Shown one piece after another: positions 6,326-59,810 of a DNA stretch of 64,000 bases (positions are counted from its first letter, which is position 1; each line of letters begins with the position of its first letter). The notes below the pieces were generated by a model that saw only the letters and a program-made list of their open reading frames with translations, was not told where the DNA came from and searched no databases. The stretch comes from Elusimicrobiota bacterium. Lineage in GTDB: Bacteria; Elusimicrobiota; Elusimicrobia; Elusimicrobiales; UBA9959. The stretch covers positions 198,705 to 262,704 of the forward strand of contig JAPLKI010000016.1 of assembly GCA_026388155.1 (NCBI GenBank), read 5' to 3'. Made by a program: the position numbers and the translations under genes.

Positions 6326-6415
6326 GCTGGCGGGCTAGTACGCTGGTATGCTTTCCGAAGTCCCTGAATTAAGCATACAAGCATACTAGCTGGCAATCTT
6401 ACTCGCCTACTAGCC
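6326..6415. repeat. Word-palindrome element (GCTAGTAC / GCATAC words)
   Basis: GGGCTAGTACGCTGGTATGCTT...AAGCATACAAGCATACTAGCTGG...CCTACTAGCC between the aminotransferase and the dehydratase small subunit. Confidence 0.5.
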
Positions 6416-6455
6416 TATGGCTGTGCCGTACCAAGGGCTATGCCCATAAGACGGC

Positions 6456-6959
6456 CTAGCGGTTCACTGTTTCCATCAGTAATTTGCGTGTATAGGAGAC
6501 CAGTCCGCCGGCGTCTATAATAGCCTGGCGCGCCTTCGGGAGCGGCTCGATCGCGAACGATTCGCCGGACGTGCGGTTGAAAACCCTGCCCTGGGCTATT
6601 TCCAGTTCGTCGCCTTCCGCGGCTTCGATCGACGGACAGATCACTATGTCCAGGCCCAGGTTTATCGCGCTCTGCAGGAAAATACGCGCGATGTTCCTGG
6701 CCACTATCGTCAGCTCATGGCCCTTAAGGCAGGATACCGCCTGCTCGCGCGAGGAGCCGCAGCCGAAGTTGTTGCCGCCCAATATAACGCTTCCGGCGGG
6801 GATCCCCCCCGCCTTGAGTTTGCCGTTGAAAGCCGTGTTGTCGGCGAACGCGAACTGCGGTGTTTCGGTGGGCAGCACTGTCGCCATGAACCGGCCGGGA
6901 TAAATGATATCGGTGGACACGTCGTCGCCAACCTTTAGAACAATTTTTTTAGTAGCCAT
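6456..6959 (-). CDS. Aconitase-family dehydratase small subunit (LeuD/HacB-like)
   Basis: DDVSTDIIYPGRF...GGNNFGCGSSREQA swivel-domain motifs. Start at the ATG at 6959 with GGAGG upstream. Confidence 0.8.
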   Translation of the reverse strand: MATKKIVLKVGDDVSTDIIYPGRFMATVLPTETPQFAFADNTAFNGKLKAGGIPAGSVILGGNNFGCGSSREQAVSCLKGHELTIVARNIARIFLQSAINLGLDIVICPSIEAAEGDELEIAQGRVFNRTSGESFAIEPLPKARQAIIDAGGLVSYTRKLLMETVNR

Positions 6960-10801: not shown

Positions 10802-11943
10802 GTCCGCGCCGGGCCGGCTACTGCGCACTTGTCCGCTATGGCCCGCGCCATATCAAGAGTGCTGGCAGAACCGCCCATATCGTAAGTGCGCACTTTGCCC
10901 TCTTTAATCACCAGGGCGGTTGCGTCCTCTATCGCCTTCGCTTTGTCGGCCTCTCCGAGCCATTCAAGCATCATCTTTGCCGCGAGAATGGTGGCGATGG
11001 GATTGACTTTGTAAAGGCCGGCGTACTTGGGCGCAGAGCCGTGAGAGGGTTCGAACACCGCCAGTTTCTCTCCGATATTGGCCGAGCAGCCGAAACCCAG
11101 TCCCCCCACCAGCTGCGCGCTCAGATCCGAGATTATGTCGCCGTACAGGTTCGGGGCGACCATTACGTCGTAGTTGAACGGGTTCTTGATCAGCCACATG
11201 GTCATGGCGTCAATGTTCGCGTCATCTATCTTTATCTCGGGGTAGTCCTTAGCCACGGCGCGCGCCGCTTCTAAAAACAGCCCGTCTGTCGCGCGTACGA
11301 CATTGGCTTTGTGAACCACCGTTACTTTCTTCCGGTTGAACTTGCGGGCGAACTCAAAGGCGGCCCGGGCAATGCGCTCCGAGCCTTTTTTTGTGTTTAT
11401 CTTGCAGGAAATAGCGTATTCATCGCTCTTTAAGTTCTTAAACGCTTTGAACGGGGGTGAAAGTTTGATAAGCGTGTCGCGAAGTTCGTCCGGCACGGTA
11501 TTGAATTCCACGCCTGAATAGAGGTCCTCTGTGTTTTCGCGGAACACCACTATATCAATGCCCTCTTTGTAGTTGAGAGGGTTGCCGGGGTAGGCTTTGC
11601 AGGGGCGCAGGCAAACATAGAGGTCGAACAGCTGCCTCATGCGCACGATAGGCGAGCGGTAAACCATCCCCTTGCCCTGGAGCGCGGGTATCAGCTCCTT
11701 CTCGGCGGTCTTAACCGGCTTTGAAGTGATGGCCCCGAACAGCGCGGCTTTCACGCTCTTAAGGAGGTCAATGGTGCGCTGCGGGAACGCGTCGCCTTCC
11801 TTGCACCAGAAGTCCCAGCCGATGTCGCCGTGGATGTATTCGGCGTCAAATTCAACGCGGTCAAGGACGATACGCGCCGCTTCCATTACTTCTTTGCCGA
11901 CGCCGTCGCCGGGGAGCCATGCTATCTGATGTTTTTTGCCCAT
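10798..11943 (-). CDS. Isocitrate/isopropylmalate/homoisocitrate dehydrogenase family protein
   Basis: NLYGDIISDLSAQLVGGLGFGCSANIG signature and SPIVRMRQLFDLYVCLRP, 381 aa. Confidence 0.85.
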   Translation of the reverse strand: MGKKHQIAWLPGDGVGKEVMEAARIVLDRVEFDAEYIHGDIGWDFWCKEGDAFPQRTIDLLKSVKAALFGAITSKPVKTAEKELIPALQGKGMVYRSPIVRMRQLFDLYVCLRPCKAYPGNPLNYKEGIDIVVFRENTEDLYSGVEFNTVPDELRDTLIKLSPPFKAFKNLKSDEYAISCKINTKKGSERIARAAFEFARKFNRKKVTVVHKANVVRATDGLFLEAARAVAKDYPEIKIDDANIDAMTMWLIKNPFNYDVMVAPNLYGDIISDLSAQLVGGLGFGCSANIGEKLAVFEPSHGSAPKYAGLYKVNPIATILAAKMMLEWLGEADKAKAIEDATALVIKEGKVRTYDMGGSASTLDMARAIADKCAVAGPART

Positions 11944-14110: not shown

Positions 14111-15817
14111 ATGTCTGAAAATGCGAAAGGTTTTACCAGTCACATCAATATGCGCAAGCGCGGGATTTTTATGGCACTCGCCTGTGTTTCTCTGGCTGTT
14201 TATTCCGCAACCGAATTACAGGCCGATTCTTACGAGTCAAGAGCGGAGGTTACCCGCCTTACAAAGTCATTGACCGATTCCAACAGCTATAAGCGCAAGG
14301 CAGCCATTGTCGCCCTGGGCGCACTGGGCTCCGACGCCAAAACTGCGGTTCCCGACCTTACAAACGCGTTGGGTGATTCTGATACCGATGTGCGCGCATT
14401 TGCCGCCGACGCTCTGGGTAAAATAGGCCCCGACGCCAAAACCGCGGTTCCCGAACTTGTAAAGGCGTTAAGCGATTCCAATCCCGATGTCCGCGTGGCG
14501 GCGGCCGTTGCCTTGGGTTTAATCGGCCCGGAAGCCAAAACTGCCGTTCCTAAACTTACAAAGCTTTCAAGCTCTTACAATGCCGACATGCGCGGGGAGG
14601 CTACTGTCGCCCTGGCTAAAATAGGCTCTAACACTCTTGCCGATCTCATAAAAGCGTTAAGCGATTCCGAGGAAAAGGTGCGCAGCCGCGCTGTTGCCGC
14701 CTTGGGCAAAATGGGCCTTGAAGCCAAAACCGCCGTCCCCGAACTTACAAAGGCATTGAGCGATTCCGCCGTCGATGTACGCGCATTAGCCGCCGACGCC
14801 CTGGGTAAAATAGGTCCGGAAGCTAAGACCGCCATTGCCGAACTCACAAAGGGATTGGGCGATTTTAATGCGGTGCGCATAAATGCGGCCTGGGCCCTGG
14901 GGAAAATAGGTCCTGACGCCGCACCCGCTGTTCCCGACCTTATCAAATCGTTGAGCGATTCTAATGACGAGGTGCGCATAAGTGCGGCCGGCGCCCTGGG
15001 GAAAATAGGCCCCGAAGCCAAAACCGCGGTTTCTGAACTCGCAAAATCATTAAGCGATTCTAACAACAAAGTGCGCGAAAACGCGGCCGGCGCCCTGGGG
15101 AAAATAGGCCCGGAGGCCAAAAGCGCCGTTCCCGAACTTACAAAGGCGTTGAGTGACTCTAACGATAAACTGCGCAAATTAGCCGCCGGCGCATTAGGTT
15201 TAATAGGCCCTGAGGCCAAAGACGCTGTTCCGGAACTCACCAAACTATTGGGCGATCCTAACGATGAGGCGCGCGCGAATGCCGCCGCCGCCCTGGATAA
15301 AATAAACCCTAAAGCCGAAACCGCCGTTCCTGAAAGCAAAACCACTGTGAGCGAGGCTGAGGATATTGCGCGCAAAGCGTATGCCCAGGCTCCGGATAAA
15401 ACAAGTCCTCAAAACAAAGACGCGGTTACCGAACTTATAAAAGCCTTAAGCGATTCTGACATAGGCGCGCGCACAGCTGCCGCCCGCACCCTGGGTAAAC
15501 TCGGTTCCGGAGCCAAAAACGCGGTTCCTGACCTTGCGCTGGCATTAGGCGATTCCGATGCCGGCGTGCGCAAAGCCGTCGCCCAAGCCCTGGGTAAAAT
15601 AGGCCCCAAGGCCAAAAGCGCCGTTCCTGAACTTATAAAAGCGTTGAGCGATTCAGATGCCGGCGTGCGCATATTAACCGCCCAAGCCCTGGGTAAAATG
15701 GGCACAAAGGCCAAAAGCGCGATCCCTGAACTTAACAAAGCGTTGAACGATTCCGACGCCGGCGTGCGCAAATTTGCCGCCAAAGCCCTGAGTAAAATAA
15801 ATCCGCCGGCTAAATAG
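14111..15817 (+). CDS. HEAT-repeat (PBS-lyase HEAT-like) protein, exported or anchored
   Basis: About 17 tandem ~31-aa units AKTAVPELTKALSDSNxxVRxxAAxALGKIGPE. AAGGAGG RBS. Hydrophobic N-terminal segment. Confidence 0.8.
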   Translation: MSENAKGFTSHINMRKRGIFMALACVSLAVYSATELQADSYESRAEVTRLTKSLTDSNSYKRKAAIVALGALGSDAKTAVPDLTNALGDSDTDVRAFAADALGKIGPDAKTAVPELVKALSDSNPDVRVAAAVALGLIGPEAKTAVPKLTKLSSSYNADMRGEATVALAKIGSNTLADLIKALSDSEEKVRSRAVAALGKMGLEAKTAVPELTKALSDSAVDVRALAADALGKIGPEAKTAIAELTKGLGDFNAVRINAAWALGKIGPDAAPAVPDLIKSLSDSNDEVRISAAGALGKIGPEAKTAVSELAKSLSDSNNKVRENAAGALGKIGPEAKSAVPELTKALSDSNDKLRKLAAGALGLIGPEAKDAVPELTKLLGDPNDEARANAAAALDKINPKAETAVPESKTTVSEAEDIARKAYAQAPDKTSPQNKDAVTELIKALSDSDIGARTAAARTLGKLGSGAKNAVPDLALALGDSDAGVRKAVAQALGKIGPKAKSAVPELIKALSDSDAGVRILTAQALGKMGTKAKSAIPELNKALNDSDAGVRKFAAKALSKINPPAK

Positions 15818-25561: not shown

Positions 25562-26040
25562 TAACTTCCGCAATGAGACCCCCTGCTGTTTAAGCGCGAT
25601 TTATGAAAACTTGGCGGGTGGTTATGTTGGGGGCGGTTGGTGTTAAATAAGTCGCGATTCACTATTTGGAGCGGGTGGCGGGGGAGCTGGGTTAGCAAAA
25701 CCGTCCGGAGGCCGAGACTTGCATAAGCGGCGAGGCCGAGGAACGGAAGGGCGGGCACGGTGAGGTCCGGCTTTAGGCCGTCTGATGGGCATAGCCCGTG
25801 AAACGGCACGGCCATAGGCCAGAGCGAAGCATAATTATGCTTCGCGTCCGGGCCGCAAGGGCGGAGGCGGTTCCCTGCGCAGCAGAACCGCCGAGCCGGG
25901 GTCGCGGAAAACAGCTATGCGGTTTATCCGTGACTGTCCCGACCCTGGTTTTGCGTTCCAGTCGCCCGACAGGACCCGCGAACCCTAAATTTGGCTGCGA
26001 GAACACCCAAAACCCAGCATGCTATCGTCGTGAGGACCTT
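25562..26040. other. Large GC-rich noncoding structured element A
   Basis: No credible ORF. Many hairpins, for example the 22-nt palindrome GCGAAGCATAATTATGCTTCGC at 25825-25846. Three collinear blocks are shared with element B in reverse orientation. Confidence 0.6.
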
Positions 26041-33959: not shown

Positions 33960-34123
33960 CGACAGCCATTAATTCCTTTCTGTTTTTCAATCCCGCTGTT
34001 CTTGTAAACTATTGAATATAGGTCTAAAGGCCTATATTAAACCTAGGTCCTTTGGCCCTTGCCAAATAGGCCTTATGACATAGACTATGGTTGATATCAT
34101 TACGGTTGTGTTTTGGAGGAACT

Positions 34124-35017
34124 TTGAAACGCTTCGTTGTATTATCGGCAGTTCTTGCGGTTCTTCCCTTTTCATCCCTGTCAGCCCAGTTGCCTGCCGT
34201 CCCGCAGTATCCCGCTATTGAAGAACTTAGGGCTTCCGTTTTACCCGCGGCCCTGGAGTTTACCTTTCCTGAACCCGTTGCCGCGAAGGCTAAAGCAGCC
34301 AATATCCCCGCAAATCTTTCAGGTGAACAGCTTTTTCAGTATCTGCACATAAACATAGTCCCGGCCAACCGCGCTTCATCGGGATATTCCGTGGCCAAGG
34401 CCTACATGTATTCCAAGGCCGACAATGTTACCTGTAACGGCGGCCCGGGTATCATAACTTTTTACTCCGAGGTTTGCGTGAACGGTACAAGTGCCAACGG
34501 CAATGACTATATTGAAAAGGGCGACCAGGATAAGGACGGAGTGGCGGGCGATTTTGTGAACGCGGAGCATATCTGGCCGCAGAGTTATTTCAACAGCGCC
34601 TATCCCATGGTGGCGGACCTCCACCAGCTGGCCTCATCCTTTTCCAGCCCCAACGGCCGCCGCGCCAACCTGCGCTTTGCCAAAGTTTCAAACGCCACCT
34701 ACAGCACCTCGTCCGGTTCCAAGCTGGGCAAGGAAGGCTTTGAGCCCGCTGACGCCGTAAAGGGCAATGTGGCCCGTGCCATGCTCTACTTTGTCGTGTG
34801 CTATTACGATCTGGATATAAGCCAGGGCATGAACTACAATGACTTCTGGACCAGCCGCGTGCCCATGCTGCTTGAATGGAATCGTCAAGACCCCCCCGAT
34901 GCCAATGAGCTTCGCCGCAATGACCTGGTGGAAACCTTCCAGGGCAACCGCAATCCCTTTGTGGATGACCCCTCCCTGGCCGACCGCGTAGGCGCGGCGG
35001 TGTTTGCCTCTCACTAG
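34124..35017 (+). CDS. Secreted endonuclease I family nuclease
   Basis: AEHIWPQSYF, GNVARAMLYF and ETFQGNRNPFVDDP motifs. TTG start at 34124, 5 nt after GGAGGA, followed by a signal peptide. Confidence 0.75.
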   Translation: MKRFVVLSAVLAVLPFSSLSAQLPAVPQYPAIEELRASVLPAALEFTFPEPVAAKAKAANIPANLSGEQLFQYLHINIVPANRASSGYSVAKAYMYSKADNVTCNGGPGIITFYSEVCVNGTSANGNDYIEKGDQDKDGVAGDFVNAEHIWPQSYFNSAYPMVADLHQLASSFSSPNGRRANLRFAKVSNATYSTSSGSKLGKEGFEPADAVKGNVARAMLYFVVCYYDLDISQGMNYNDFWTSRVPMLLEWNRQDPPDANELRRNDLVETFQGNRNPFVDDPSLADRVGAAVFASH

Positions 35018-35056
35018 GAGTGCAGGCTGAAGGCTGAAGGTAAAAAATATAACCCG

Positions 35057-35464
35057 AAATCCTTAGTTAACTAAGGATTTCGGGTTAACAGTTTTCCCGG
35101 CTTCCGCAGGCCCCCTAAAAATCACCGTCTCTTCATTAGCAACCCTCTTGAAATCCGGGTGCCTCACGGGTAAGAGGGAGGAATGTTTTTTATCCGGCAG
35201 CCGGCCTTACGGGTTTGCGGGGCCTGCCGCCGGACCGGAACGCGGGGACAGCCGTCCACACCGTGGCCGGCTTCCATGACTCACCTTCGGCGCTTGCGTA
35301 AGCCTCAGGTTCGCGAAGGCCCCGCTAACCCGGCTCCGGCGGCACCCGCTCCATTTATTCAAGGGAGAAACTTGTTGTAAAAAAGGGAAGAGTCAAAGCG
35401 CCGGCGCCCGTTCCCGCAAGATACGCGGGCGTAAGGGTGCCTCATTGCGGAAGTCAGGAGACTT
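35057..35464. mobile_element. GC-rich noncoding element B (homolog of A, opposite orientation), bracketed by 27-bp direct repeats
   Basis: Direct repeats AAGGCTGAAGrTAAAAAATATAACCCG at 35030-35056 and 35465-35491. Termini CTTCCGCA (35101) and TGCGGAAG (35447) are inverted. No ORF is conserved with A. Confidence 0.6.
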
Positions 35465-35501
35465 AAGGCTGAAGATAAAAAATATAACCCGGGAAGACAA
35501 T

Positions 35502-35532
35502 AAAAAAAGGCCCCGTTAAAAGGGCCTTTTTT
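35502..35532. terminator. Bidirectional rho-independent terminator (the original carboxypeptidase terminator)
   Basis: A7-GGCCC-loop-GGGCC-T6. Confidence 0.65.
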
Positions 35533-35550
35533 ATTGCGCGCGTTACGCTT

Positions 35551-35702
35551 TAGTTGAGCAGCTTATACGGGTTGTCGGTCACGCTTAGCATGTAGAGCGC
35601 GGCTTTGATGTTGGCGGAAACAGCGTGGTCTATTATCGCGACTCCCGGATAGAAGCCGTTACCTTCAAGCTCGGTGGTGAAGGCGAATATTCCCGCCGCG
35701 GC
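35551..35702 (-). pseudogene. Orphan 3' fragment (about 50 codons plus stop) of the M14 carboxypeptidase gene
   Basis: 152 bp nearly identical to 40411-40562, with 2 mismatches in the 145-bp core and more at the stop-proximal edge. It keeps its own stop (…YKLLN* versus …YKLLQ*) and terminator. Confidence 0.8.
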
Positions 35703-35874
35703 CGACTAAACTCCCCTAAGCCACCCGCATTTTGCCTGGCTTTTCCCCCGCCCGGCTGGCCGCTATTTTTGATATTATACCTCTAATGACCGTTGCGGCA
35801 AAATTTTTTGTGCGATTTTAGCGGCTCAACCTGTTCTGCTGAATTGTGCTCCGCACCCACTATAATCTTGCAGT

Positions 35875-36318
35875 ATGTTTCCTACATTTTCCAAAAAGGT
35901 GGCAGCGAGCGATATGAAGAACTGTCCAAAATGCGGAGCTATCAATGCGGATAATACTGAAAAGTGTCCCAATTGCGATGCGGAGAAAGCGGGAACCTCT
36001 GTCGCAGCAGTCCCGGTGAACGATTTTGCAGCAAGCCGGTGGAAAGCGGTACTCTTATCCGTGTTCTGGTGCGGCGGAGGGCAATTTTATAAAAGGGAAT
36101 GGCTCAAGGGGGGCCTTATGTTCCCTGTTAACCTGCTTTTTTATCCCATGACCCTTTTCGCCCTCATGTCCATAGGTGACTACGAGCACCCCGGTGCCGC
36201 GGCCAAGATACTTCCCATCTACATCAAGGTTCTTTGTGTAACCGCTCCGGTCTGGGTTTGGGGGCTGGTTGATTCTTACAGGTGCCCGGCATCTTCAACC
36301 GGCGATAAAGGGCGCTGA
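35875..36318 (+). CDS. Zinc-ribbon / TM2-like membrane protein
   Basis: CPKCG...CPNC zinc ribbon followed by a WCGGGQFY TM2-like segment. Confidence 0.5.
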   Translation: MFPTFSKKVAASDMKNCPKCGAINADNTEKCPNCDAEKAGTSVAAVPVNDFAASRWKAVLLSVFWCGGGQFYKREWLKGGLMFPVNLLFYPMTLFALMSIGDYEHPGAAAKILPIYIKVLCVTAPVWVWGLVDSYRCPASSTGDKGR

Positions 36319-36390
36319 GAGGAATTCGGAACGAATTTTCAAAAGAAAAGGCAGCGGGAGCTTTTTTAATCCTATTCAGCCAGCTCAGCG

Positions 36391-37320
36391 TTATTCTTTT
36401 ACTCCGAACCCCACGTTTAACGTGACTTTATGCATAACCTCGCCAAGGTTGCCCGCGGGCTGAAAAGCGTAATCCAAACCTACGCCGCCGAAGTTAAATC
36501 CTGCGCCCGCAGTAAAACTCGTTTCTTTTTCGGCGCCGCCCGCGCGTTTCATCCCGCCGCGTAAAGACAGACCCGCCACATTGTATTCCACGCCCGCGCC
36601 GAGGTTAACATCAGCATCCGCCGGTTTTTGCGCTTCAACTCCTATTATCGCGTTGTTCTTGCCCAGATCCAGCCTGTATCCCGCACCGGCGCGTATTACG
36701 CGCAGCAGCGGATCCCCCACGGTTTTATATTTCAGCTCGCCGGTTATGTTCTGCACACCCGCGCCAAGCGTAAATCTGTCGCTTATTTTAAACATTATTC
36801 CGGCGTCAAAGGTAAGAGCGTCGGCGGTGTATTTCTCCGCAAGCTTGCTTGTGACGGATTTTACCTGGCCGCCGATAAAAAGCCAATCTGCAGCATGCAG
36901 TCCTAAACCCGCCGAAAGCGCGCTGTCGGATTCAAATTTCACATTGCCGGTCTGCGTTCCGTTCGTATCATATACCTTATCGCTCCCGCTGGCATATCCC
37001 AGATATCCGAAGCCCAGCGCTCCCAGCCCGCCCAGTTTCAGCGCCGCATATCCGAAGCTGTAAGTTCCTACTGCGGCAACGTCTTTCCAAGCGGATGCGG
37101 CCAAGCGTACATTGCCTGTCATGTTGCCCAGCAAGGCGGGGTTGATATACATCGCGCCAGGGTCATTTGCCGCCAGCAGGGACACTCCTCCAAGCGCGGA
37201 AACGCGCGCCGATGGTTCATCGGTAAGAAAAAGCCCGGACTGAGCGTCCGCCCCTCCGGCAAAAGACAAAACGGGGAACACTATCGCGAGAAGCAGTAAA
37301 AGAGTTGATTTTCTTTTCAT
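36391..37320 (-). CDS. PorV/PorQ-like outer-membrane beta-barrel protein
   Basis: Signal peptide, then ARVSALGGVSLLAANDPGAMYINPALLG, the motif typical of the PorV/PorQ family. The start lies 1 nt from the Kelch gene stop. Confidence 0.55.
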   Translation of the reverse strand: MKRKSTLLLLLAIVFPVLSFAGGADAQSGLFLTDEPSARVSALGGVSLLAANDPGAMYINPALLGNMTGNVRLAASAWKDVAAVGTYSFGYAALKLGGLGALGFGYLGYASGSDKVYDTNGTQTGNVKFESDSALSAGLGLHAADWLFIGGQVKSVTSKLAEKYTADALTFDAGIMFKISDRFTLGAGVQNITGELKYKTVGDPLLRVIRAGAGYRLDLGKNNAIIGVEAQKPADADVNLGAGVEYNVAGLSLRGGMKRAGGAEKETSFTAGAGFNFGGVGLDYAFQPAGNLGEVMHKVTLNVGFGVKE

Positions 37321-37321
37321 A

Positions 37322-40204
37322 TTATTTCACCACCATTACGCGCTTGGTTTTGCTGATTCCCGGTCCTTCCACACGCACCAGGTATATGCCGCTGCCCACG
37401 ATTTTACCTTCTTCGTTCTTGCCGTTCCACTGGTCCGAGTAATCGCCGGTGTTCCGGCTGCCCTCGAACAAGGTGCGCACTAAACGCCCCTTCAGGTCAT
37501 AAACCTTCACCGAAACCCTGCCCGAAGCCGACAACTGGGTGTCCACATAGGTCTTACCGCCGCTTGCGGGATCAAAAAGATTATTGCGGACCTGCACCTG
37601 CGGCGAATCCCTCATAGCATCGGATATAACGGTAAAGCCGTCGGTCAATTGGACCGGCGATTGCCCGGGGATGGTGACAACCACACTCCATTTTCCTGCG
37701 GCAGCGCCTGTCAGATTGAAAGTGCATGTGATTTGATTCGCGCTTACGACAGTGACGTTTGAGGCATTTATGTCTGTTTGCCCTGACTTCGTTATTTTCA
37801 CCGTTGCCCCGCTGGCAAAGCCGGTTCCCGCAACCGTTATACCGCTTGCGTTGTTGAATCCGGAATTTGGCGTTATTGATGTAATAGTCGCTCCCACCAG
37901 GGTAGCAGTGGAACCAAGTGCCGTGTACGCCGTTATTATTCCATCGCCGTTTATGGCCGCTACGCGGGCGTAATAGACAGTATTATCCGATAGGCCCGGT
38001 AAAACCGCGCTAAAATTATAGGTGTCGGAAGACGCCGCCACCGTGCCAAAGGCTGAATCAACAGACGCCTGCGCCCGGTATAAGGTTGTACCGGAGGGAT
38101 TACCGTTTTGAGTCCAGTTAACCGTGACGGAGTTCGGGTTGGCGCCTGTAAAAGCCGGAATTGCGGCAATCGGGACGGCTGCCAGCGTATAGGTAGAAAC
38201 CGTCGGGCTTTCGGCTGTTTCCACACCGCTTGAATCGCGGGCCTTGGCTGTGAAGCTGTACTGCGTATTGGGCGTCAGCGCGGTAAACGACGCCGTCACG
38301 CCGGGGTCGTATTCTTCGTTGGTGTTCCAACCACTCCCATCATCCCCCCCCACGGCATACAGCTTGCCGCCAATTACCCCGGCAGACAAACTATAACGAA
38401 CCGTGGGCATTACTGCTTTTGTACTCCATGTATTACTTGCAGGGTCATACTCCTCGTTGGTATTCAAATTGCTCACATCATTCCATCCCCCCACAGCATA
38501 CAGCTTGCCGCCTATGACTCCCGCTGACAAACAAACACGGGCCGTGGGCATTATTGCTTTTGTCGCCCAGGTATTGGCCGCGGGGTCATACTCTTCGTTG
38601 GTATCCAACCGACTTCCATTATTTCCACCCACGACATAAAGCTTGCCGTAGATTACTCCGGCAGACATTCCGTCACGGGCCGTGGGCATTGCAGCTTTTG
38701 TCGCCCACGTATTTGCCACGGAGTCAAACTCCTCGTTGGTGTTCAACCAACTCCCATTACCACCCCCTACGGCATACAGCTTGCCGCCGATTACTCCGGT
38801 AACACATGCGCTACGGCCCGTGGGCATTACCGTTTTTGTCTCCCAGGTATTGGCCGCGGGATCATACTCCTCGTTGGTATTCAAGTCACTACCATTAGTT
38901 CCCCCCATAGCATACAGCTTGCCGCCGATTACTCCGACAGACAAATTATAACGGGCTGTGGGCATTGCCGCTTTTGTCGCCCACATATTCGCCACGGGGT
39001 CAAACTCCTCGTTGGTGTTCACATAACTCCCATTCCAGCCCCCCACAGCATACAGCTTACCACCTATTACTCCCGCCGATAAAGCATCCTGGGCCGTGAG
39101 CATTCCCGCTTTTGTGGTCCATTTATTTCCATTTCGCCAGGTTGAATACGTTCCATCTTTTGCCACGTTTACGCCGGCTGAGCCTGTCTCAAGTCCGGTA
39201 AACGCAGGCGTGGCGGCGTAGCCTGAAGCGGTTATTGAATTACTTGAGACTTCGTCGAATACAACGCTCGTCGGCGTTTCAATTCCGGAAGTTGCTGGAT
39301 TGTACACGTTAAGAGTGGTTGTGGATCCTGCGGTAACGTATAGCTTGTTATCGATAACACCCGAAGAAAAAGAATTGTTCGCCACGGGCATTGACTCCCC
39401 CAAACTCCACGAGTCGGTGGACGGATCGTAGATTTGAACTATGTCAGTTTTTCCGGTGCCTGTAACGCCGCCGAGCAGATATATCTTGTTGTTAATCACT
39501 TCAGCCCTCGAGTCTTTCACGGGTGTTGGCAATGACGCCATACTGGTCCATGTGTCGGAGGCGGGATTATACGCTTCAACACTGCCCATAATGCTGCCGG
39601 AGATTTCCCATCCCCCGAAAGCATAAAATTTACCGTTATAGACCGCCATCGCGGCATCGGAGTGGTAGTTTACTGGCTGTGTTTTTTCAGTCCAGGCGTT
39701 TGTGTCAGGGTCATATACATAAAAATATTTATCCAGACCGCTATAACCATCAGCCGTATCAAGCACGTAGAATTTGCGGTCTATCACACCGCCCTGGTTA
39801 GAGCCGTTGAGGATGGGCATACTGGCGCCGGTGGTCCAGGTGTTTGAGGCTGGGTCGTAAATCTTCAGCAAATCATTAGGGATTGATGAAGACCAGCCAC
39901 CGACGATGTAAAGTTTATTGTCAATTATTCCGGCCGCGCCCAAATATTCAGGATAGTTCATGGCGGCTTTTGTGCTCCAGGTATCGGTGTTCGGGTTATA
40001 CGCATCAACCTCGGTTATTAGACCGGATGGTCCGCTGGTGGTCCCGCCGGCCACATATAAAACACCGTTAATAACACCTGATTGACAGTCTGATCTTGGA
40101 GTCGGCAAAGGCGCCTTTGTTGACCAGCCCGCATAACCGCTTTGGGCAGCCAGAAAGAAAAACATGCCAAAGGCCGCACAAACCTTAAAGTGTTTGGTTT
40201 TCAT
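37322..40204 (-). CDS. Secreted Kelch-repeat (double beta-propeller) protein with FN3/Ig-like domains and a FlgD-Ig/T9SS-type C-terminal domain
   Basis: About 12 Kelch blades (GGKLYAVGG...NTNEEYDP). The six in the second propeller are near-identical, with ~144-bp DNA periodicity over 38330-39130. C-terminal ...VKVYDLKGRLVRTL...GIYLVRVEG... sorting-domain-like sequence. Confidence 0.75.
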   Translation of the reverse strand: MKTKHFKVCAAFGMFFFLAAQSGYAGWSTKAPLPTPRSDCQSGVINGVLYVAGGTTSGPSGLITEVDAYNPNTDTWSTKAAMNYPEYLGAAGIIDNKLYIVGGWSSSIPNDLLKIYDPASNTWTTGASMPILNGSNQGGVIDRKFYVLDTADGYSGLDKYFYVYDPDTNAWTEKTQPVNYHSDAAMAVYNGKFYAFGGWEISGSIMGSVEAYNPASDTWTSMASLPTPVKDSRAEVINNKIYLLGGVTGTGKTDIVQIYDPSTDSWSLGESMPVANNSFSSGVIDNKLYVTAGSTTTLNVYNPATSGIETPTSVVFDEVSSNSITASGYAATPAFTGLETGSAGVNVAKDGTYSTWRNGNKWTTKAGMLTAQDALSAGVIGGKLYAVGGWNGSYVNTNEEFDPVANMWATKAAMPTARYNLSVGVIGGKLYAMGGTNGSDLNTNEEYDPAANTWETKTVMPTGRSACVTGVIGGKLYAVGGGNGSWLNTNEEFDSVANTWATKAAMPTARDGMSAGVIYGKLYVVGGNNGSRLDTNEEYDPAANTWATKAIMPTARVCLSAGVIGGKLYAVGGWNDVSNLNTNEEYDPASNTWSTKAVMPTVRYSLSAGVIGGKLYAVGGDDGSGWNTNEEYDPGVTASFTALTPNTQYSFTAKARDSSGVETAESPTVSTYTLAAVPIAAIPAFTGANPNSVTVNWTQNGNPSGTTLYRAQASVDSAFGTVAASSDTYNFSAVLPGLSDNTVYYARVAAINGDGIITAYTALGSTATLVGATITSITPNSGFNNASGITVAGTGFASGATVKITKSGQTDINASNVTVVSANQITCTFNLTGAAAGKWSVVVTIPGQSPVQLTDGFTVISDAMRDSPQVQVRNNLFDPASGGKTYVDTQLSASGRVSVKVYDLKGRLVRTLFEGSRNTGDYSDQWNGKNEEGKIVGSGIYLVRVEGPGISKTKRVMVVK

Positions 40205-40409
40205 TAGTGATTTCCCCCCACTAAACATCCATTTTTATGCTTTGGTGTTAAGCATTATGGAATTACCGTAAACCGTATCACTTAATATATTATTATGTCA
40301 AGACGATTTTAATCACAGGTTATGTTTGCAAGAATTAATGGTGTAAATCTTTGCCACCGGGAAACGGAAATACAGGCAAGTCCGGCGGACAGGCAGGAAT
40401 GATAATTTT

Positions 40410-41735
40410 TTATTGCAGCAGCTTATACGGGTTGTCGGTCACGCTTAGCATGTAGAGCGCGGCTTTGATGTTGGCGGAAACAGCGTGGTCTATTATCGCG
40501 ACTCCCGGATAGAAGCCGTTGCCTTCCAGCTCGGTGGTGAAGGCGAATATTCCCGCCGCGGCGTATGCCCAGTCGCAGGTGTCGCCGGTGGCCACATACA
40601 GATCGCTGGCCTGCTCGGGCTTGTAACCGGTAAAACCGGCCATAGCCGCGCCCATCTTCTCAAAAACCTGCCTGTCCCTGGCGTTTTCCACAGGCACAGC
40701 TTTGCCCCCCCAGGGGTAAAGCAAAAGGCTGGAATAGGAGTGGTAACTCATCAGGGTTTTAAGATTCCCTCGGGCTTCCGCGAATTTTTTTACGGCCTGC
40801 GTTTCCGGCTCGGAAAAGGCCGATGGGCCGCAATAAGTTTCAGCCGACGGGGAATGCGAGGCGCCGCCCTTACACCAAAGCGCGTCGTAGTTGCGGTTCA
40901 GGTCCACGCCGATGGATTTATCCGGGTTGACGCGCGTGTTTTTGCGCTGCCAGCGGTATTTGCCGGCGGCTATATCATACTCCACCCCGTCGCCGTTAAG
41001 CATGGGAACAATGTATATGTCCAAAGCGGACAGATAGCTTTTAATATCGGCGTCGTTCCTGTGTTCAAGCAAATAGGCAGCGAACAATAAAGGAACCTCG
41101 TTGGAAAGATGCTCGCGGGCGTGATGGTTGCCTATGTAAAAAGCGCCGGGCTTTGAGCTTGCGGCGTCGCCTTTGGCAGAAGTGTTAAGGCGCAGACACC
41201 ATATGTCGCGGCCTTCCACGGTTTTGCCGATGGAAAAAAGTGAAGCGATATCCTGGTTGGCGGCGGCCAGCTGTTTGAGCACATCTGCCGTTTCTTTGTA
41301 GTTATGGTAAGCGGAGTCGGCGGCGGGAAAATCTTTAAGGTATTGTCTGGCATAGTCGTATATGCTTTGCCTGCTCAGGACCACATAACCCTTTTCTGAA
41401 AGTGTGTCCAGCCCCTGTTTATGAATAAAACCTGAAACAGTTTTGTCATTGACTTCCGCTATATCCAGGCCGATTTCAAGAAGCGCGGTGCGCGCGTATT
41501 TATCGGAGGCCGAAACGGTCACCCAGAACCTGTCGTCGTTTTTAAGGTCTTCCAGGGCGGCCATTTCAACCCCGGGTTCCGGCAGGCTGATGTCTTTTAA
41601 TATCCCGCCTGTAAGCCGGTTCAGAAGCTGTTCAAAGGAGACATTCACCGCCTTCTCCGGAGACCTGTCCCCGGCGGCCATTAATGTTCCGGCCCAGAAT
41701 ACCGGAAGAATAATATAAATTGACAATTTTTTCAT
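40410..41735 (-). CDS. Secreted M14 family zinc carboxypeptidase
   Basis: GNHHAREHLS (HxxE zinc ligands) and SYHSYSSLLLYPWG, with a signal peptide. Confidence 0.85.
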   Translation of the reverse strand: MKKLSIYIILPVFWAGTLMAAGDRSPEKAVNVSFEQLLNRLTGGILKDISLPEPGVEMAALEDLKNDDRFWVTVSASDKYARTALLEIGLDIAEVNDKTVSGFIHKQGLDTLSEKGYVVLSRQSIYDYARQYLKDFPAADSAYHNYKETADVLKQLAAANQDIASLFSIGKTVEGRDIWCLRLNTSAKGDAASSKPGAFYIGNHHAREHLSNEVPLLFAAYLLEHRNDADIKSYLSALDIYIVPMLNGDGVEYDIAAGKYRWQRKNTRVNPDKSIGVDLNRNYDALWCKGGASHSPSAETYCGPSAFSEPETQAVKKFAEARGNLKTLMSYHSYSSLLLYPWGGKAVPVENARDRQVFEKMGAAMAGFTGYKPEQASDLYVATGDTCDWAYAAAGIFAFTTELEGNGFYPGVAIIDHAVSANIKAALYMLSVTDNPYKLLQ

Positions 41736-41745
41736 TGGTCAAAGT

Positions 41746-42507
41746 CTATTGTATCGCGTCAAGGGCGTTGTTTTGCTGCTCCTTAAGCAGCTTTTCGTTT
41801 TGCTTCGCTTCCTCTTCTTTCCTTTGCGCTAAGGCATGCGTGGAATCGTTTTTGAATTCCCCGAAAATATCCGCGCTCAGGTATGTGATCTCATAATTGA
41901 TTTCCGGCTCCGGACCGGGAAACAGCTTTTCCGTGCCCAGAACAATTATGGTTTTCTTTTTCTCCCATATCTCCAGGTTATAAGAGCCGGTCACCTTGTT
42001 GTCAGCGGGGTCGGTGTCCTGAAACGAGAGATTGCGCGAGCTGCCGCCGTGGATGGATACTATTTTTTGTTTATAGTCAGAGACCGGCAGGATTTTATCA
42101 AGGCCGCCCGTGTAGGCGAAAAAACGGTCTTTATAAAAGCCGAATACCGCTTCCTGCCGCGCGCTGTAAAACCATTCCAGATCGTCGCCCAGCAGATCGT
42201 CGGGATCGGTTTCGGAAACGCCTATTAAGCGCAGTATTTCCCAGGGCAGATCTGTGATGGAATTGTGCGGTTCGGAGCGCGAAAAATCAATATTCAGGCT
42301 GGCTTTGACTTCATCTTTTGAAATTCCCCAGGCGGCCTGTTTATAGCCGCTCAATTCCGTCCCGGAAGCCGGGGCGCTTTTAACCGGCTGCGCGGCGTCT
42401 TTCACGGCCCCGGCGGCGGAGCGCGTTGAAACCGTCTGGGCGTGAGATATATACGGAAAGACACTAAGCAACAGCAAAATTAACACCGAATTAGATAGTT
42501 TAAGCAT
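41746..42507 (-). CDS. Secreted hypothetical protein
   Basis: ATG at 42507 after GGAGGC gives MLKLSNSVLILLLLSVFPYISHA, a signal peptide. Confidence 0.5.
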   Translation of the reverse strand: MLKLSNSVLILLLLSVFPYISHAQTVSTRSAAGAVKDAAQPVKSAPASGTELSGYKQAAWGISKDEVKASLNIDFSRSEPHNSITDLPWEILRLIGVSETDPDDLLGDDLEWFYSARQEAVFGFYKDRFFAYTGGLDKILPVSDYKQKIVSIHGGSSRNLSFQDTDPADNKVTGSYNLEIWEKKKTIIVLGTEKLFPGPEPEINYEITYLSADIFGEFKNDSTHALAQRKEEEAKQNEKLLKEQQNNALDAIQ

Positions 42508-42745
42508 ACCGCCTCCGAATCCCGGTTCAATATTGTTCCTGCCCGGGAAGCCGCAGGAACAAGGTAAGCGTTGTTTGAAGTCCATGTAGCGCTGACTTTT
42601 TAGATTATATATTAAATTGTCAAAAATCGTAAGGGCCTGGAACATTCCCGGAACATTAGAGCATTTTAATTCTGTTTTAATCCTATATTAATGGATTTTC
42701 CGCTATACTATCCTAAGAAGTAAACTAGTCAAGGAGAAGCTGAAA

Positions 42746-43759
42746 ATGAAAAGTTCAAAATCACTTATACTGGGTTTTGCTTTGCTGCTGCCGGCCTTTG
42801 CCTCGGCGCAGGATCAATCCCCGGCAAGTAATACTCCCGCGGCGTCGGCCACGCCTGCCGTAACCTCCGCCGCCCCGGCCACACCCGCTGCTGCCCCCGT
42901 AACAACGCCAGCTGCCAGTCCCGCTGTCGCTCCTGCGGCTCAGGCTGTCCCTGCCGCCCCGGCCACTCCCTCTGTCGCGCCCGAAACAGCGCCAGCTGCC
43001 AGTCCCGCTGTCGCCCCTGCGGCTCAGGCTGCGCCTGCCGCCCCGGCCACTCCCGCTGTAGCTCCAGTAACGCCGGCTGTCCCTGTTGCCCCGGCCACGC
43101 CCGCTGTTGCCCCTGCGACACCGCCCGTCTCCCCCGCGACAGCCGAGATCGCCGCTAAAGTAGAGCAGGCTGTCATGGATACCGCATGCAAAGCCGATAA
43201 AGACAAGTTCTGCAAAGATGTAAAGCACGGCGGCGGCGCTACCGGCAAGTGTTTGAGAGAACATAAGGACGAACTTTCCGACCCCTGCAAGCAGTTAATG
43301 GAAGCGCGCGAAAAGAAACAGCAGGCTGAATTACAGGAAAAACAGCGGCAGGAAAAAAGGGAAGCCTGGATCGCGGCTTGCGGCGCTGATAAAGACAAGC
43401 TCTGCAAAGATGTGAAATCCGGCGTCGGCGCTACCAGCAAGTGTTTGAAGGAACATAAAGACGAACTTTCCGCCTCCTGCAAGCAATACCTTGAAGCGCG
43501 CGACAAGAAACAGCAGGCTGAATTAGAGGAAAAACAGAAACAGGAAAAAAAAGATGCCTGGAATACGGCGTGCGGCGCCGATATGGACAAGTTCTGCAAA
43601 GATGTAAAGGCCGGCCATGGCGAGAAAGCGAAATGCCTTAAAGCGCATGAAGCCGAACTTTCCCAGGTCTGTAAAGATAAACTAGCCGAAAAGAAAGAGA
43701 CAAAAGAAGAAAAAAAGGAAGAGAAAAAGGAAGAATCCAAGCCTGCGGATAAAAAATAG
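42746..43759 (+). CDS. Secreted protein with an Ala/Pro-rich linker and three cysteine-rich repeats
   Basis: Signal peptide, (A/P/T/V)-rich tandem segment, then 3x ~60-aa C-x-x-DKDKFCKDVK-x-G-x-G-x3-KCLKEHKDELS-x2-C units separated by KKQQAEL-EKQ coiled segments. Confidence 0.7.
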   Translation: MKSSKSLILGFALLLPAFASAQDQSPASNTPAASATPAVTSAAPATPAAAPVTTPAASPAVAPAAQAVPAAPATPSVAPETAPAASPAVAPAAQAAPAAPATPAVAPVTPAVPVAPATPAVAPATPPVSPATAEIAAKVEQAVMDTACKADKDKFCKDVKHGGGATGKCLREHKDELSDPCKQLMEAREKKQQAELQEKQRQEKREAWIAACGADKDKLCKDVKSGVGATSKCLKEHKDELSASCKQYLEARDKKQQAELEEKQKQEKKDAWNTACGADMDKFCKDVKAGHGEKAKCLKAHEAELSQVCKDKLAEKKETKEEKKEEKKEESKPADKK

Positions 43760-48827: not shown

Positions 48828-48883
48828 GCGGTTGCCTTTGTGCGTCTAACCCGAATCCGGCAGTTCAATATGGTTCTCATTGA

Positions 48884-49030
48884 GAAAATCAGGGAACAGA
48901 AATATTGCAGGATTCCCCGCAGTAGCGGGTCGCTGACCAAGCGCTACGCGCGCCAGGTCAGCGAGGGTGTATGCCGCGCGAAGCGCACCTGAGCTCCGCG
49001 AAGGGAAAGTTTTAACTGAAACTTTCAGGC
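48884..49030. ncRNA. Candidate structured RNA motif D, copy 1
   Basis: Aligns to 50582-50731 with compensatory changes in at least four helices. Strand unresolved. Confidence 0.55.
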
Positions 49031-50449: not shown

Positions 50450-50581
50450 ATGTGCTTATATCATACATCGCGCGTAAACATCGGCCAAGTGAATATAGGC
50501 CCATATGACCCCCATATTATGGCCTATACGGGTTTGGGCCTTTATTATCCTGAATCCTGCAGTCCATTGTGGTTTCCATAG

Positions 50582-50731
50582 AAAAATCAGGTGAACAATA
50601 AAATGCAGGATTCCCCGTAGCAACGGGTCGAAAACCAAGCGCAATGCGCGACAGGTTTTCGAAGGTGTATGCCGCGCGAAGCGCACCTTGAGCTCTGCGA
50701 AAGGGAAAGTTGCAACTGCAACTTTCAGGCT
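50582..50731. ncRNA. Candidate structured RNA motif D, copy 2
   Basis: See copy 1. Located between the satP stop and the lipase start. Confidence 0.55.
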
Positions 50732-59187: not shown

Positions 59188-59728
59188 TAGACAAAAGCGG
59201 GGACTGATGCGGGACAAGCGGCGATATAGTGACCGCAGAGAATACCTTATAGAAGCTGTCAGAAAGCGGAGAAGGAAAATCCGGGAAATGGCGGTGGATT
59301 ATAAGGGCGGCAAATGCCGGCTGTGCGGTTACAATAAGTGCAGCGAAGCGCTTGAGTTTCATCATCTTGACTCTTCCGTTAAAGACTTTGGGATATCACA
59401 CAAGGGATATACCAGAGGCTGGAAAAGGGTCAAAATGGAACTTGATAAATGCGTAATGCTGTGCGCCAATTGTCACAGAGAGGTTCACGCCGGAAAGCAG
59501 CTTCTACGGGAAACCGTAGTTGAAAAACCAGGTGAACTCAGGGAAACCCTTAAAAAATAAGGGCAATCCTGAGCCAAGCCGCGAACAACATCGCGGAAGG
59601 TGCAGAGACTATCCCGAAAGGGAGTACTGTCCTTCGCAGTTAAGGATGGGAAGCGCCTGGGTCCGTAAAGAGCGAGTGTTCCACGGATATGATATAGTCC
59701 AAGCTCTGAAGCAATTCAGAGGCTCTTG
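59188..59728 (+). ncRNA. Group I intron, IC3-like (tRNA-intron type)
   Basis: Follows a U and ends in G. Core blocks CTCAGGGAAACC, GGCAATCCTGAGCCAAGCC and GGAAGGTGCAGAGACTA, plus GAAA- and GCAA-tetraloop hairpins, as in cyanobacterial tRNA-Leu introns. Confidence 0.85.
59207..59560 (+). CDS. HNH homing endonuclease (intron-encoded)
   Basis: CRLCGY...LEFHHLD...N...CVMLCANCHREVH HNH/zinc motif, 117 aa, lies wholly within the intron. Confidence 0.8.
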   Translation: MRDKRRYSDRREYLIEAVRKRRRKIREMAVDYKGGKCRLCGYNKCSEALEFHHLDSSVKDFGISHKGYTRGWKRVKMELDKCVMLCANCHREVHAGKQLLRETVVEKPGELRETLKK

Positions 59729-59766
59729 TAACCGATAGGTTGTAGGTTCGAGTCCTACCCGGGGAG

Positions 59767-59810
59767 AAAAAATTTAGGCCACCTTTAATTTACGGTGGCC
59801 TAAATTTTTT
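59767..59810 (+). terminator. Terminator after the tRNA gene (bidirectional form)
   Basis: AAATTTAGGCCACC-loop-GGTGGCCTAAATTT followed by a T-run. Confidence 0.7.

Follow-up and report, generated by a model that had tools for sequence, protein, structure and literature searches.

How did a block of three genes come to lie right behind the last codons of a carboxypeptidase gene, with a second copy of these codons on its far side? The question is raised by a 64-kb stretch of Elusimicrobia DNA (hereafter the window), in which a sequence-only reading had noted near-identity between 35551-35702 and 40411-40562 and had seen in the DNA between them an integrated cassette that supplied its target with a replacement 3' end. 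A repeat search and alignment of the window lengthen the match slightly, to a direct repeat of 154 nt (35549-35702 and 40409-40562; spacing 4860 nt), identical at 149 of 154 positions and with a longest exact run of 104 nt. The five mismatches (3.2%) fall at 35553, 35555, 35556, 35661, and 35667, the last two exactly where differences within the core had been placed. The repeat holds codons 391-440 of the gene for an M14 carboxypeptidase, the stop codon TAA, and one nucleotide more, so that its 5' edge is a codon boundary (Ala391) and its 3' edge lies 1 nt past the stop. It is far beyond a chance match, since it is the sole long non-tandem repeat of more than 90% identity in the window. The gene and the two copies are as follows.

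40410-41735, minus strand: intact gene for an M14 zinc carboxypeptidase of 441 aa (PF00246, E=2.5e-65; identical to NCBI MCX5785471.1)
40409-40562, minus strand: M14-attached repeat copy (codons 391-440, TAA, and 1 nt; ends in KLLQ and stop; from the alignment)
35549-35702, minus strand: orphan repeat copy (the last 50 M14 codons with TAA at 35550-35552; an in-frame TAG stands two codons upstream; not a listed open reading frame)

Reading of both frames agrees with the earlier observation that the orphan keeps a stop of its own, the attached copy ending in YKLLQ and the orphan in YKLLN.

Between the copies lies an island of 4.7 kb with three genes and with spacers of 72-181 nt.

37322-40228, minus strand: Kelch beta-propeller/FN3/Ig-like protein with a C-terminal type IX secretion system (T9SS) type A sorting domain (Kelch_1, E=8e-107; FlgD_ig; fn3)
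36391-37320, minus strand: PorV/PorQ-family outer-membrane barrel, 309 aa (NF033709, 92.7 bits, cut-off 90; PF11751, 31.8 bits, cut-off 22.3)
35914-36318, plus strand: small zinc-ribbon and membrane protein, 134 aa by the gene call on Logan contigs (the frame opens at 35875), convergent with the PorV gene
40229-40408, minus strand: AT-rich spacer from the M14 stop to the Kelch start, with two promoter-like sites and zero terminator-like sites
35703-35874, no strand: non-coding edge of the insert next to the orphan, where the junction 35702/35703 comes after the palindrome GCCGCGGC

Profile searches agree with the gene content first proposed, with a qualification for the zinc-ribbon protein, whose profile matches are weak and below cut-off; it has a CPKC...CPNC motif and a hydrophobic C-terminal half. 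The Kelch frame spans 968 aa (960 aa in the NCBI call; P0024 is 100% identical), and its residues 892-966 match the type A sorting domain model TIGR04183 at 31.2 bits (cut-off 23). The PorV start codon lies 2 nt past the Kelch stop, and P0001 is 100% identical to the PorV protein. An assignment of the barrel to PorQ itself was rejected, the PorQ equivalog score being 72.6 against a cut-off of 220. Cargo sorting domain and PorV/PorQ-family barrel thus both score above curated cut-offs. PorV is the shuttle that binds the C-terminal sorting domains (CTDs) of T9SS cargo (PMC5562754), and in four other loci (L078, L080, L082, L086) a PorV-like gene again comes after a cargo gene; the Kelch and PorV proteins are probably a functional pair. 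The island has the same arrangement as known T9SS cargo/partner pairs, in which the gene for a PorV/PorQ/PorP-family barrel comes immediately after that for a secreted repeat protein bearing a C-terminal sorting domain. In Bacteroidota, type B CTD cargo is paired with PorP/SprF-like neighbours. The present pair differs from those of Bacteroidota in its host, a member of the Elusimicrobia, and in a type A CTD with a FlgD_ig-like fold match. Core T9SS components (PorK/L/M/N, Sov, PorU) were not found among the genes scanned in the window.

The composition of the island is atypical, which we count in favor of a foreign or relocated origin. The comparison of GC content and codon usage with the flanks that the earlier reading had proposed gives GC3 values of 0.56-0.57 for the island genes, against 0.64 +/- 0.06 for the window; a codon-usage distance of 1.26 for the Kelch gene, against 0.45-0.85 in other genes of more than 500 codons, except for the gene at 14111-15817 with its 99-nt repeat (1.51); and a tetranucleotide distance exceeded in just one of 60 comparison windows. 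The upstream region described as AT-rich (40229-40409) has 36.5% GC, against 54% for the window.

Whether the block was inserted or is an old component of the locus can be judged from related loci. In four of them, all from Elusimicrobia, the Kelch, PorV, and zinc-ribbon genes are absent and the M14 gene runs straight into a convergent gene for endonuclease I, across gaps of 600 nt (L001), 1090 nt (L074), 13 nt (L066), and 69 nt (L084/L085), and the AT-rich spacer has no counterpart in L001, L074, L066, or L084. In the window the endonuclease gene lies beyond the orphan, next to a terminator.

34124-35017, plus strand: endonuclease I gene (PF04231, E=1.2e-38), convergent with M14; adjacent to M14 in L001, L074, L066, L084, and L085; 297-aa product in Logan contigs
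35503-35532, minus strand: ancestral bidirectional terminator of M14 (12-pair stem and T-run; orthologous hairpin in L001 and L084)

Synteny is kept on the M14 side in L001 (TetR-OEP-AcrB-M14) and on the endonuclease side in L084 (EndoI-orf93-beta-CASP-DEAD-GNAT-DEAD). Because the four relatives have no island genes at this position, gene order confirms the island as a lineage-specific insertion, at the carboxypeptidase 3' end as first supposed, and endonuclease I is the ancestral downstream neighbour of M14. Orthologues of the M14 protein share 82% (L001), 75% (L074), and 73% (L084) aa identity; a homologue search returned none closer than 82%, the 90% cluster is a singleton, and exact-match searches placed neither the M14 nor the Kelch protein in another context. 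A 27-mer of the repeat that is conserved with L001 had no match among JGI metagenome contigs or viral contigs, and these searches brought up no near-identical strain with an empty site. M14 itself differs by 17.7% between the window and L001, and with repeat copies 3.2% apart against about 18% between orthologues, the event is younger than the split from the nearest relative. An arrangement already present in a common ancestor and repeatedly lost in the relatives is highly improbable. Recombination between direct repeats could indeed remove the block precisely and without a scar, but the copies are far less diverged than the orthologues (18-28%) and would have had to be kept alike by continuous gene conversion; the island is absent from the four relatives and from 16 more distant M14 loci as well (20 Elusimicrobia M14 loci examined), and its composition is atypical of the window.

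The orphan had been taken for the original gene end on account of a strong terminator past it (35502-35532). The hairpin was found at 35503-35532 and ranks second of 15 terminator-like sites in 34000-43000. Orthologous hairpins follow the M14 stop in L001 (11830-11869) and L084, and the orphan together with its downstream sequence can be aligned with M14 end and terminator in both loci. Since the terminator past the orphan is orthologous to the one after M14 in two of the four island-free loci, the proposal is supported that the orphan is the ancestral end of the gene, still in its ancestral context. Relative to the four relatives, the M14-attached copy carries one derived change, which is synonymous (CTT to CTG), and shows an end of the ancestral type, KLLQ, which L074 shares; the orphan carries three or four derived changes among the five variable sites, including the sole amino-acid change, Q to N. 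This outgroup polarity indicates that one resident-type sequence gave rise to both copies, of which the orphan is probably decaying. One synonymous change in the gene against three or four changes in the orphan is what would be expected of a functional copy and a pseudogene fragment that started out identical, and the pattern is compatible with copies that were identical at the time of insertion. A replacement 3' end brought in by the element, as the sequence-only reading had it, is not required, because polarity derives both copies from resident-type sequence. The diverged stop-proximal edge was correctly observed, with three mismatches within 4 nt just ahead of the shared TAA; as a sign of a foreign 3' end it was dropped after ungapped comparison and outgroup polarity, which attribute it to decay of the orphan. 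These three clustered changes could also be an inherited allelic difference.

The source is a metagenome-assembled genome, and a misassembly had been named as something to exclude. In that case the assembler would have threaded into the chromosome a 4.86-kb circle, or a block from another strain, with the 154-bp segment in common. At least 12 runs, assembled independently in Logan, reproduce the island/orphan junction. The contigs L075/L097 (eight samples), L076, L077, L098, L100, and L101 are 100% identical to the window, and the junction 35702/35703 is present in L075 and L097-L101. On the orphan side L075/L097, L098, L100, and L101 end exactly 30 nt into the repeat, as expected of a k=31 graph, and k=31 contigs cannot resolve a repeat of 154 nt. 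L099 reaches from 35557 to 36754 and so joins the orphan alleles at 35661 and 35667 to the island. Across the 104-nt exact run, the link from these alleles to the edge with KLLN, stop, and terminator comes from the original assembly alone; Logan contigs on the endonuclease side, examined for this link, all end in the palindrome at 35050-35087. One junction with copy-specific alleles is thus seen in independent assemblies, and the other edge in the original one. Against an artefact or an episome, at least 12 runs bear out the island-repeat junction, which L099 ties to orphan-type alleles; the copies can be told apart at five sites, and a stretch of 104 nt is within reach of common assembler k-mers or 150-nt reads. 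The phasing of the assembly is also coherent, with a conserved functional copy and a decayed orphan; were the phases swapped, the functional gene would bear the amino-acid change and most of the derived changes. We regard such an error as quite unlikely.

What, then, placed the block there? The earlier report of no integrase, recombinase, or transposase in or near the island holds: such families were found in no gene from 19.6 to 57.5 kb, about 15-17 kb to either side. Terminal inverted repeats were not found at the island ends, the best end-to-end match scoring 17, a value reached by 53 of 500 shuffles. Scans of viral contigs with the PorV and zinc-ribbon proteins gave no copy or relative. 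A contig with PorV and the Kelch end at 83-85% identity (L086) diverges right past the PorV stop and has no zinc-ribbon gene downstream of the PorV homologue, and no gene-end repeats surround the Kelch/PorV pairs in L078, L080, and L082, which stand in ordinary contexts. Nor was a donor or circular form of the island found. These results lend no support to a mobile cassette as first pictured, and we propose that the island is a passive, non-autonomous insertion with no recombinase, inverted termini, or mobility backbone. An integrase acting in trans is still conceivable, the scope of the scan lying within the 64 kb.

The most serious alternative, which we consider possible but clearly the less probable reading, is that the island is a remnant or satellite of a site-specific integrative element, whose attP carried the M14 3' end, whose tyrosine or serine recombinase acted at the 5' edge of the homology and was since lost or lies elsewhere, and whose attL and attR are the two repeats. 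The geometry is that of e14 and phage 21 in icd of Escherichia coli, where the gene extends into the element and stays intact through a copy of its 3' end at the proximal edge, while the icdC fragment remains as an orphan at the distal edge, and where loss of the insert recombines gene and orphan (PMC13626634; Hill et al. 1989, PMC210168). Both cases have an intact protein-coding gene, a distal orphan C-terminal fragment of about 50 codons, copies that differ by a few mostly conservative changes, and flanking repeats of which one completes the target gene (here 154 nt, 149/154). The run of the repeat from a codon boundary to 1 nt past the stop, by which the frame is restored, would fit such an element, as would the sharp 5' boundary at the palindrome GCCGCGGC and the separate duplication in L001, where copies of the M14 stop region flank a different insert. 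However, e14, a prophage of 15 kb, encodes its own integrase and is excised on SOS induction, whereas the island has 4.7 kb and is filled by three non-mobility genes (Kelch, PorV, zinc-ribbon), with no tyrosine or serine recombinase beside the repeat or anywhere in 19.6-57.5 kb; and both of its repeat copies would derive from the resident gene, not from a diverged allele borne by the element. A described class of elements that keep attL and attR but have lost their integration genes, the CIMEs, offers another parallel: in streptococci such segments sit at the 3' end of genes (fda, tRNA-Lys), bounded by direct repeats and devoid of integration and transfer genes (PMC5704250), as the island is. 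CIMEs, though, are decay products of ICEs or IMEs with a known cognate integrase and have short att repeats; the island's repeat has 154 bp and covers exactly the end of the frame, its 72-181-nt spacers leave no room for pseudogene remnants of a decayed backbone, and a related or integrase-bearing element occupies the site in none of the 20 Elusimicrobia M14 loci.

Transposition with widely staggered target cuts, by a transposase supplied in trans, would also leave a long repeat. IS1549 and IS1634 make long and variable target duplications of 8-514 bp (PMC2266710), a range that includes 154 nt. These are elements of 1.5-2 kb with a DDE transposase and defined ends, and the island has neither. 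Duplications flank inserts three times at the M14/endonuclease spacer in the window and L001 (154, 33, and 28-36 nt), one of them as follows.

35024-35491, plus strand: second local duplication, a 33-nt direct repeat (35024-35056 and 35459-35491, 91%) around a structured small-RNA element with its core at 35210-35353

Its repeat score was reached by none of 200 shuffles. The 28-36-nt duplication of the M14 stop region in L001, around another insert, is independent; L001 is the only one of the 20 loci to show a gene-end duplication around M14, and this duplication hints at a recurrent, possibly site-specific target. Rfam has no family for 35000-35900 or for the second RNA copy. The small-RNA element was considered as a general maker of long target duplications and rejected, because its flanking repeats reach significance in the window and in L001 but not in any of 12 other copies. 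With no general mobility of this kind, no inverted termini, and no transposase family in 19.6-57.5 kb, we think transposition very unlikely. It is doubtful, but worth stating, that in this Elusimicrobia clade the M14/endonuclease I spacer may be the target of an unrecognised recombinase-independent (or trans-acting) process that makes long gene-end duplications (154, 33, and 28-36 nt) and moves both the cargo/PorV cassette and the small-RNA element; if so, it would be a new way to add surface-protein modules and leave the target gene undisrupted.

We put about even weight on our preferred account, a single passive insertion. A single event, later than the split from the nearest relative sampled, would have put the 4.7-kb block at the very end of M14 and, in the same step, duplicated the resident last 50 codons and stop (154 bp), so that M14 remained intact upstream of the insert and a second, now decaying copy stayed downstream beside the ancestral terminator. 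The junction may have formed by recombination through the 154-bp M14 homology, either as a single crossover of circular DNA carrying the segment or in a one-ended, homology-anchored manner; alternatively, repair or a template switch may have left the gene just past its stop and re-entered it 154 bp upstream. Because no donor or circle was found, we infer this recombination step from the geometry alone. One feature counts against this account: a repeat that ends exactly 1 nt past the stop is not predicted by random repair and resembles a selected replacement end borne by an element, as in e14 at icd.

For the organism, the insertion has brought the Kelch and PorV genes directly downstream of M14, on the same strand and with no terminator-like site between, and has left the orphan as a pseudogene "fossil" that marks the original end of the gene. 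Homologous recombination between the two repeats could remove the block again. Since e14 at icd and decayed integrative elements already show this geometry, the finding is mostly a further example and not a new principle, and is fairly ordinary in that respect. It is a clean and comparatively dated case, from an uncultivated phylum, of a surface-protein/secretion pair added behind a housekeeping gene that was not inactivated. If integrase-free, repeat-bracketed blocks of this kind are common, they would escape island finders that depend on integrases or tRNA targets and, since their repeats allow precise loss, would be a source of reversible variation in gene content.

The island between the two copies of the duplicated M14 carboxypeptidase gene end, and the gene end itself, comprise the following features.

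35549-35702 and 40409-40562, 154-nt direct repeat at a spacing of 4860 nt (repeat search and alignment)
40410-41735, minus strand, M14 zinc carboxypeptidase gene (PF00246, E=2.5e-65)
35503-35532, terminator after the orphan copy, with a 12-pair stem
Island, Kelch protein with ten Kelch motifs and FN3 and Ig-like domains, 968-aa ORF (annotated by NCBI as 960 aa; P0024)
Island, PorV/PorQ-family barrel (NF033709, 92.7 bits; cut-off 90), 309 aa, start codon 2 nt past the Kelch stop
Island, zinc-ribbon membrane protein, 134-147 aa, on the strand opposite Kelch and PorV, with weak family matches only

The repeat copies match at 149 of 154 positions in an ungapped comparison (mismatches at 35553, 35555, 35556, 35661, and 35667; longest exact run, 104 nt), and they form the sole long non-tandem repeat above 90% identity across the 64-kb window. 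Read on the minus strand, the repeat opens on an M14 codon boundary and covers the final 50 codons with their TAA stop, plus one further nucleotide. The gene-attached copy terminates in ...YKLLQ* and the orphan copy in ...YKLLN*. For the orphan, which does not appear in the ORF list, a TAG stands in frame two codons upstream. The spacer between M14 and Kelch has 36.5% GC and promoter-like sites, and a scan of it for terminator-like sites found none. On re-examination of the repeat, genes, terminator, and AT-rich spacer, all descriptive statements of the sequence-only reading hold.

That the assembled structure is an artefact or reflects an episome is very improbable. Logan contigs L075/L097 (one contig, from eight samples), L076, L077, L098, L100, and L101 show 100% identity to the window, so that the island is carried by independent assemblies. 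Those reaching the orphan side (L075/L097, L098, L100, and L101) end exactly 30 nt inside the orphan repeat, at 35673, the point at which a k=31 graph would break, the following k-mer also occurring in the gene copy; the contigs on the side of the endonuclease I (EndoI) gene, which is convergent with M14, all terminate in a palindrome at 35050-35087, short of the KLLN* edge and the terminator. Across the 104-nt exact run, the orphan alleles are thus linked to that edge and terminator in the original assembly alone, but L099, from a separate run, matches 35557-36754 at 100% and joins the orphan bases at 35661 and 35667 to the island, and the assembled phasing is the biologically coherent one, with the functional copy conserved and the orphan drifted.

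The comparison drew on 74 loci encoding M14 relatives, plus one further contig found by homologue search. The relevant relatives are L001 (82% M14 amino acid identity), L074 (75%), L084/L085 (73%), and L066 (63%), in all of which a convergent EndoI gene follows M14, at gaps of 600, 1090, 69, and 13 nt, respectively; none of these gaps contains a Kelch, PorV, or zinc-ribbon gene. Flanking synteny is kept, upstream in L001 (TetR-OEP-AcrB-M14) and on the EndoI side in L084 (EndoI-orf93-beta-CASP-DEAD-GNAT-DEAD, the order found in the window). The orphan and its downstream sequence align with the M14 end and terminator of L001, and in L084 the M14 stop is followed directly by the same AATAAAAAAGGCCC...GGGGCC terminator as the orphan. 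Together these comparisons indicate that the block is an insertion in the window's lineage, the orphan and terminator being the original end of the gene, retained at its old position; the earlier proposal of an insertion is supported by both the comparative loci and the independent assemblies. Since the repeat copies differ by 3.2% and the M14 genes of the window and L001 by 17.7% at the nucleotide level, the event postdates the split of these two lineages.

We polarised the five variable repeat sites against L001, L074, L084, and L066. The functional gene copy carries one derived change, which is synonymous (a Leu codon that is CTG here and CTT in the orphan and four of four relatives). The orphan carries three to four changes, including the only amino acid change: its GGT, its CTC, and the third base of its AAC are each found in the orphan only, the gene copy sharing the relatives' state, and the CTGCTGCAATA of the gene copy is identical to L074. 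Such a distribution would be expected of two copies of a single resident-type sequence, of which the orphan subsequently drifted; it is suggestive rather than strict, because C-terminal residues differ among M14 relatives (E, Q, N, and K). Three clustered orphan changes could be one complex mutation. The diverged edge noted from the sequence does not show the supply of a foreign replacement 3' end, a reading not established here, since the polarity, which places most changes in the orphan, fits a shared resident-type origin.

The M14/EndoI spacer holds two further features.

35024-35056 and 35459-35491, 33-nt direct repeat (91%) around a 400-nt non-coding element
35210-35353, plus strand, 143-nt RNA core of that element, 92% identical to L001 11438-11579

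In L001 the RNA core follows the M14 stop and precedes the terminator, its orientation with respect to M14 being reversed, and there the final four M14 codons, the stop, and approximately 15-20 nt are duplicated (11315-11342 and 11802-11829, 86%) around a 450-nt insert containing the core, which runs opposite to the window copy. With the 154-nt repeat and the 33-nt repeat around the window RNA copy, this makes at least three duplication-associated rearrangements of the spacer in two related genomes; the spacer around the insertion is a rearrangement hot spot.

No gene from 19.6 to 57.5 kb belongs to an integrase, transposase, or other recombinase family, as had been noted from the sequence, and the spacers between the three island genes (72-181 nt only) are too short to hold a decayed mobility gene. 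No significant inverted repeat was found at the ends of the island, and the PorV protein, zinc-ribbon protein, and 154-nt repeat have no relatives in viral contigs. The description of the block as a mobile cassette is therefore not established. In Escherichia coli, icd continues into an integrated e14 or phage 21, at the other end of which there is an icdC fragment (PMC13626634; Hill et al. 1989, PMC210168), and cis-mobilizable elements (CIMEs) retain attL and attR after loss of the integration genes (PMC5704250). The island has the same geometry as the former and resembles the latter, and is a new example of a geometry already known. An integrase that acts in trans or has since been lost is nonetheless unlikely: a site-directed process would account for a repeat ending exactly 1 nt past the M14 stop, and for the independent 28-36-nt duplication of the L001 M14 stop region around a different insert, but, counting against the e14/phage 21 and CIME families, the island has neither recombinase nor decayed backbone, no cognate element occupies the M14-end site in 20 other Elusimicrobia loci, and the polarity of the repeat does not require an element-borne allele. 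IS1634/IS1549 produce long, variable target duplications (8-514 bp; PMC2266710), but the island lacks their ends and transposase. Our preferred reading, to which we give an even chance, is a one-off insertion that used or created a 154-bp duplication of resident sequence, which might have arisen by a single crossover of a circle carrying the 154-bp segment, by one-ended, homology-anchored recombination, or by a template switch that exited just past the stop codon and resumed 154 bp upstream.

The proposed comparison of GC and codon usage found the island genes somewhat atypical in composition: GC3 is 0.56-0.57 versus 0.64 +/- 0.06, the codon distance of Kelch is 1.26 versus 0.45-0.85 in other genes of more than 500 codons, and the island's tetranucleotide distance is exceeded by just 1 of 60 comparison windows. 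The closest homologues are all from Elusimicrobia. A 568-aa ORF of approximately 13 tandem 99-nt repeats (14111-15817), the exception to the range of the long genes, also has atypical codon usage (distance 1.51).

The Kelch protein carries a T9SS type A sorting domain (TIGR04183, 31.2 bits; cut-off 23), and PorV is a shuttle that binds such C-terminal domains (CTDs) (PMC5562754). By analogy, and because other contigs, L078 (CARDB/BACON cargo), L080 (NHL/TIG), and L082 (Kelch), likewise have a PorV-like gene after a cargo gene, Kelch and PorV probably form a functional two-gene unit. L086 has a Kelch-end/PorV pair 85% identical to that of the island, with homology going no further than the stop codon of PorV; the zinc-ribbon gene is therefore not a constant partner. 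Gene-end repeats were not found around the pairs of L078, L080, L082, and L086. Elusimicrobia contigs repeatedly have a large repeat-domain protein with a FlgD_ig/T9SS-type C-terminal domain adjoining a PorV/PorP-like barrel gene (L078 2693-6782, L080 85-3670, L082 10001-14070, and L086); a cargo-plus-partner arrangement thus exists outside Bacteroidota.

On the other side of M14, 41746-43759, between AcrB and M14, is a second lineage-specific block, encoding a 299-aa ORF without family match and a 337-aa cysteine-rich-repeat protein whose gene has atypical codon usage and contains internal tandem repeats of 84 and 192 nt; the corresponding interval of L001 is just ~370 nt, partly masked as N. 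A non-coding repeat of ~150 nt (48860-49010 and 50558-50708, 82-88%; no Rfam match) brackets 1.7 kb with an alpha/beta hydrolase gene, and a related copy occurs immediately after the Kelch/PorV-like pair in L082 (14224-14317). A group I intron (RF00028, 82.9 bits, 59445-59721; region ~59200-59790, plus strand) is overlapped by an upstream ORF with the HNH-type motif CANCHREVH (59207-59560). After the intron, at ~59740-59770, come a tRNA-like T-arm and acceptor 3' half; as ARAGORN reports no tRNA in the window, the region looks like an intron-split tRNA gene.

The RNA core of the M14/EndoI spacer has no family in Rfam 15. We gathered 13 distinct copies from the window, comparison loci, and JGI metagenomes, to which a longer, diverged second window copy is additional.

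Window 35210-35353, plus strand, and 25663-26000, minus strand (the second copy)
L001 11436-11578
L009 9696-9867 and 17141-17384
L010 9710-9856
L087-L096

The fold of the family, of ~145 nt, combines a three-way junction with a long closing stem, and the motifs GGACCGGAACGC, CACACCGUG, and GCUAACCCGG are conserved. In a 12-sequence alignment, paired cells amount to 94.4%, and 18 of 42 pairs are changed on both sides (10.0 +/- 1.7 in shuffles, with 18 reached in 0 of 500; 0-8 when partners are slid). Each genome has several copies, in gene contexts unrelated to one another; examples lie after atpC in L087, ahead of adenine deaminase in L009, and around a BrnT/BrnA-like pair in L091. Some share a conserved upstream TTTGGGTGTYC motif, and flanking repeats reach significance only for the copies in the window and L001. 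A 49-nt inverted repeat (6410-6458 and 25774-25822, 88%) places one hairpin module of the second window copy in another intergenic spacer. This structured RNA family is a separate lead, possibly more novel than the island.
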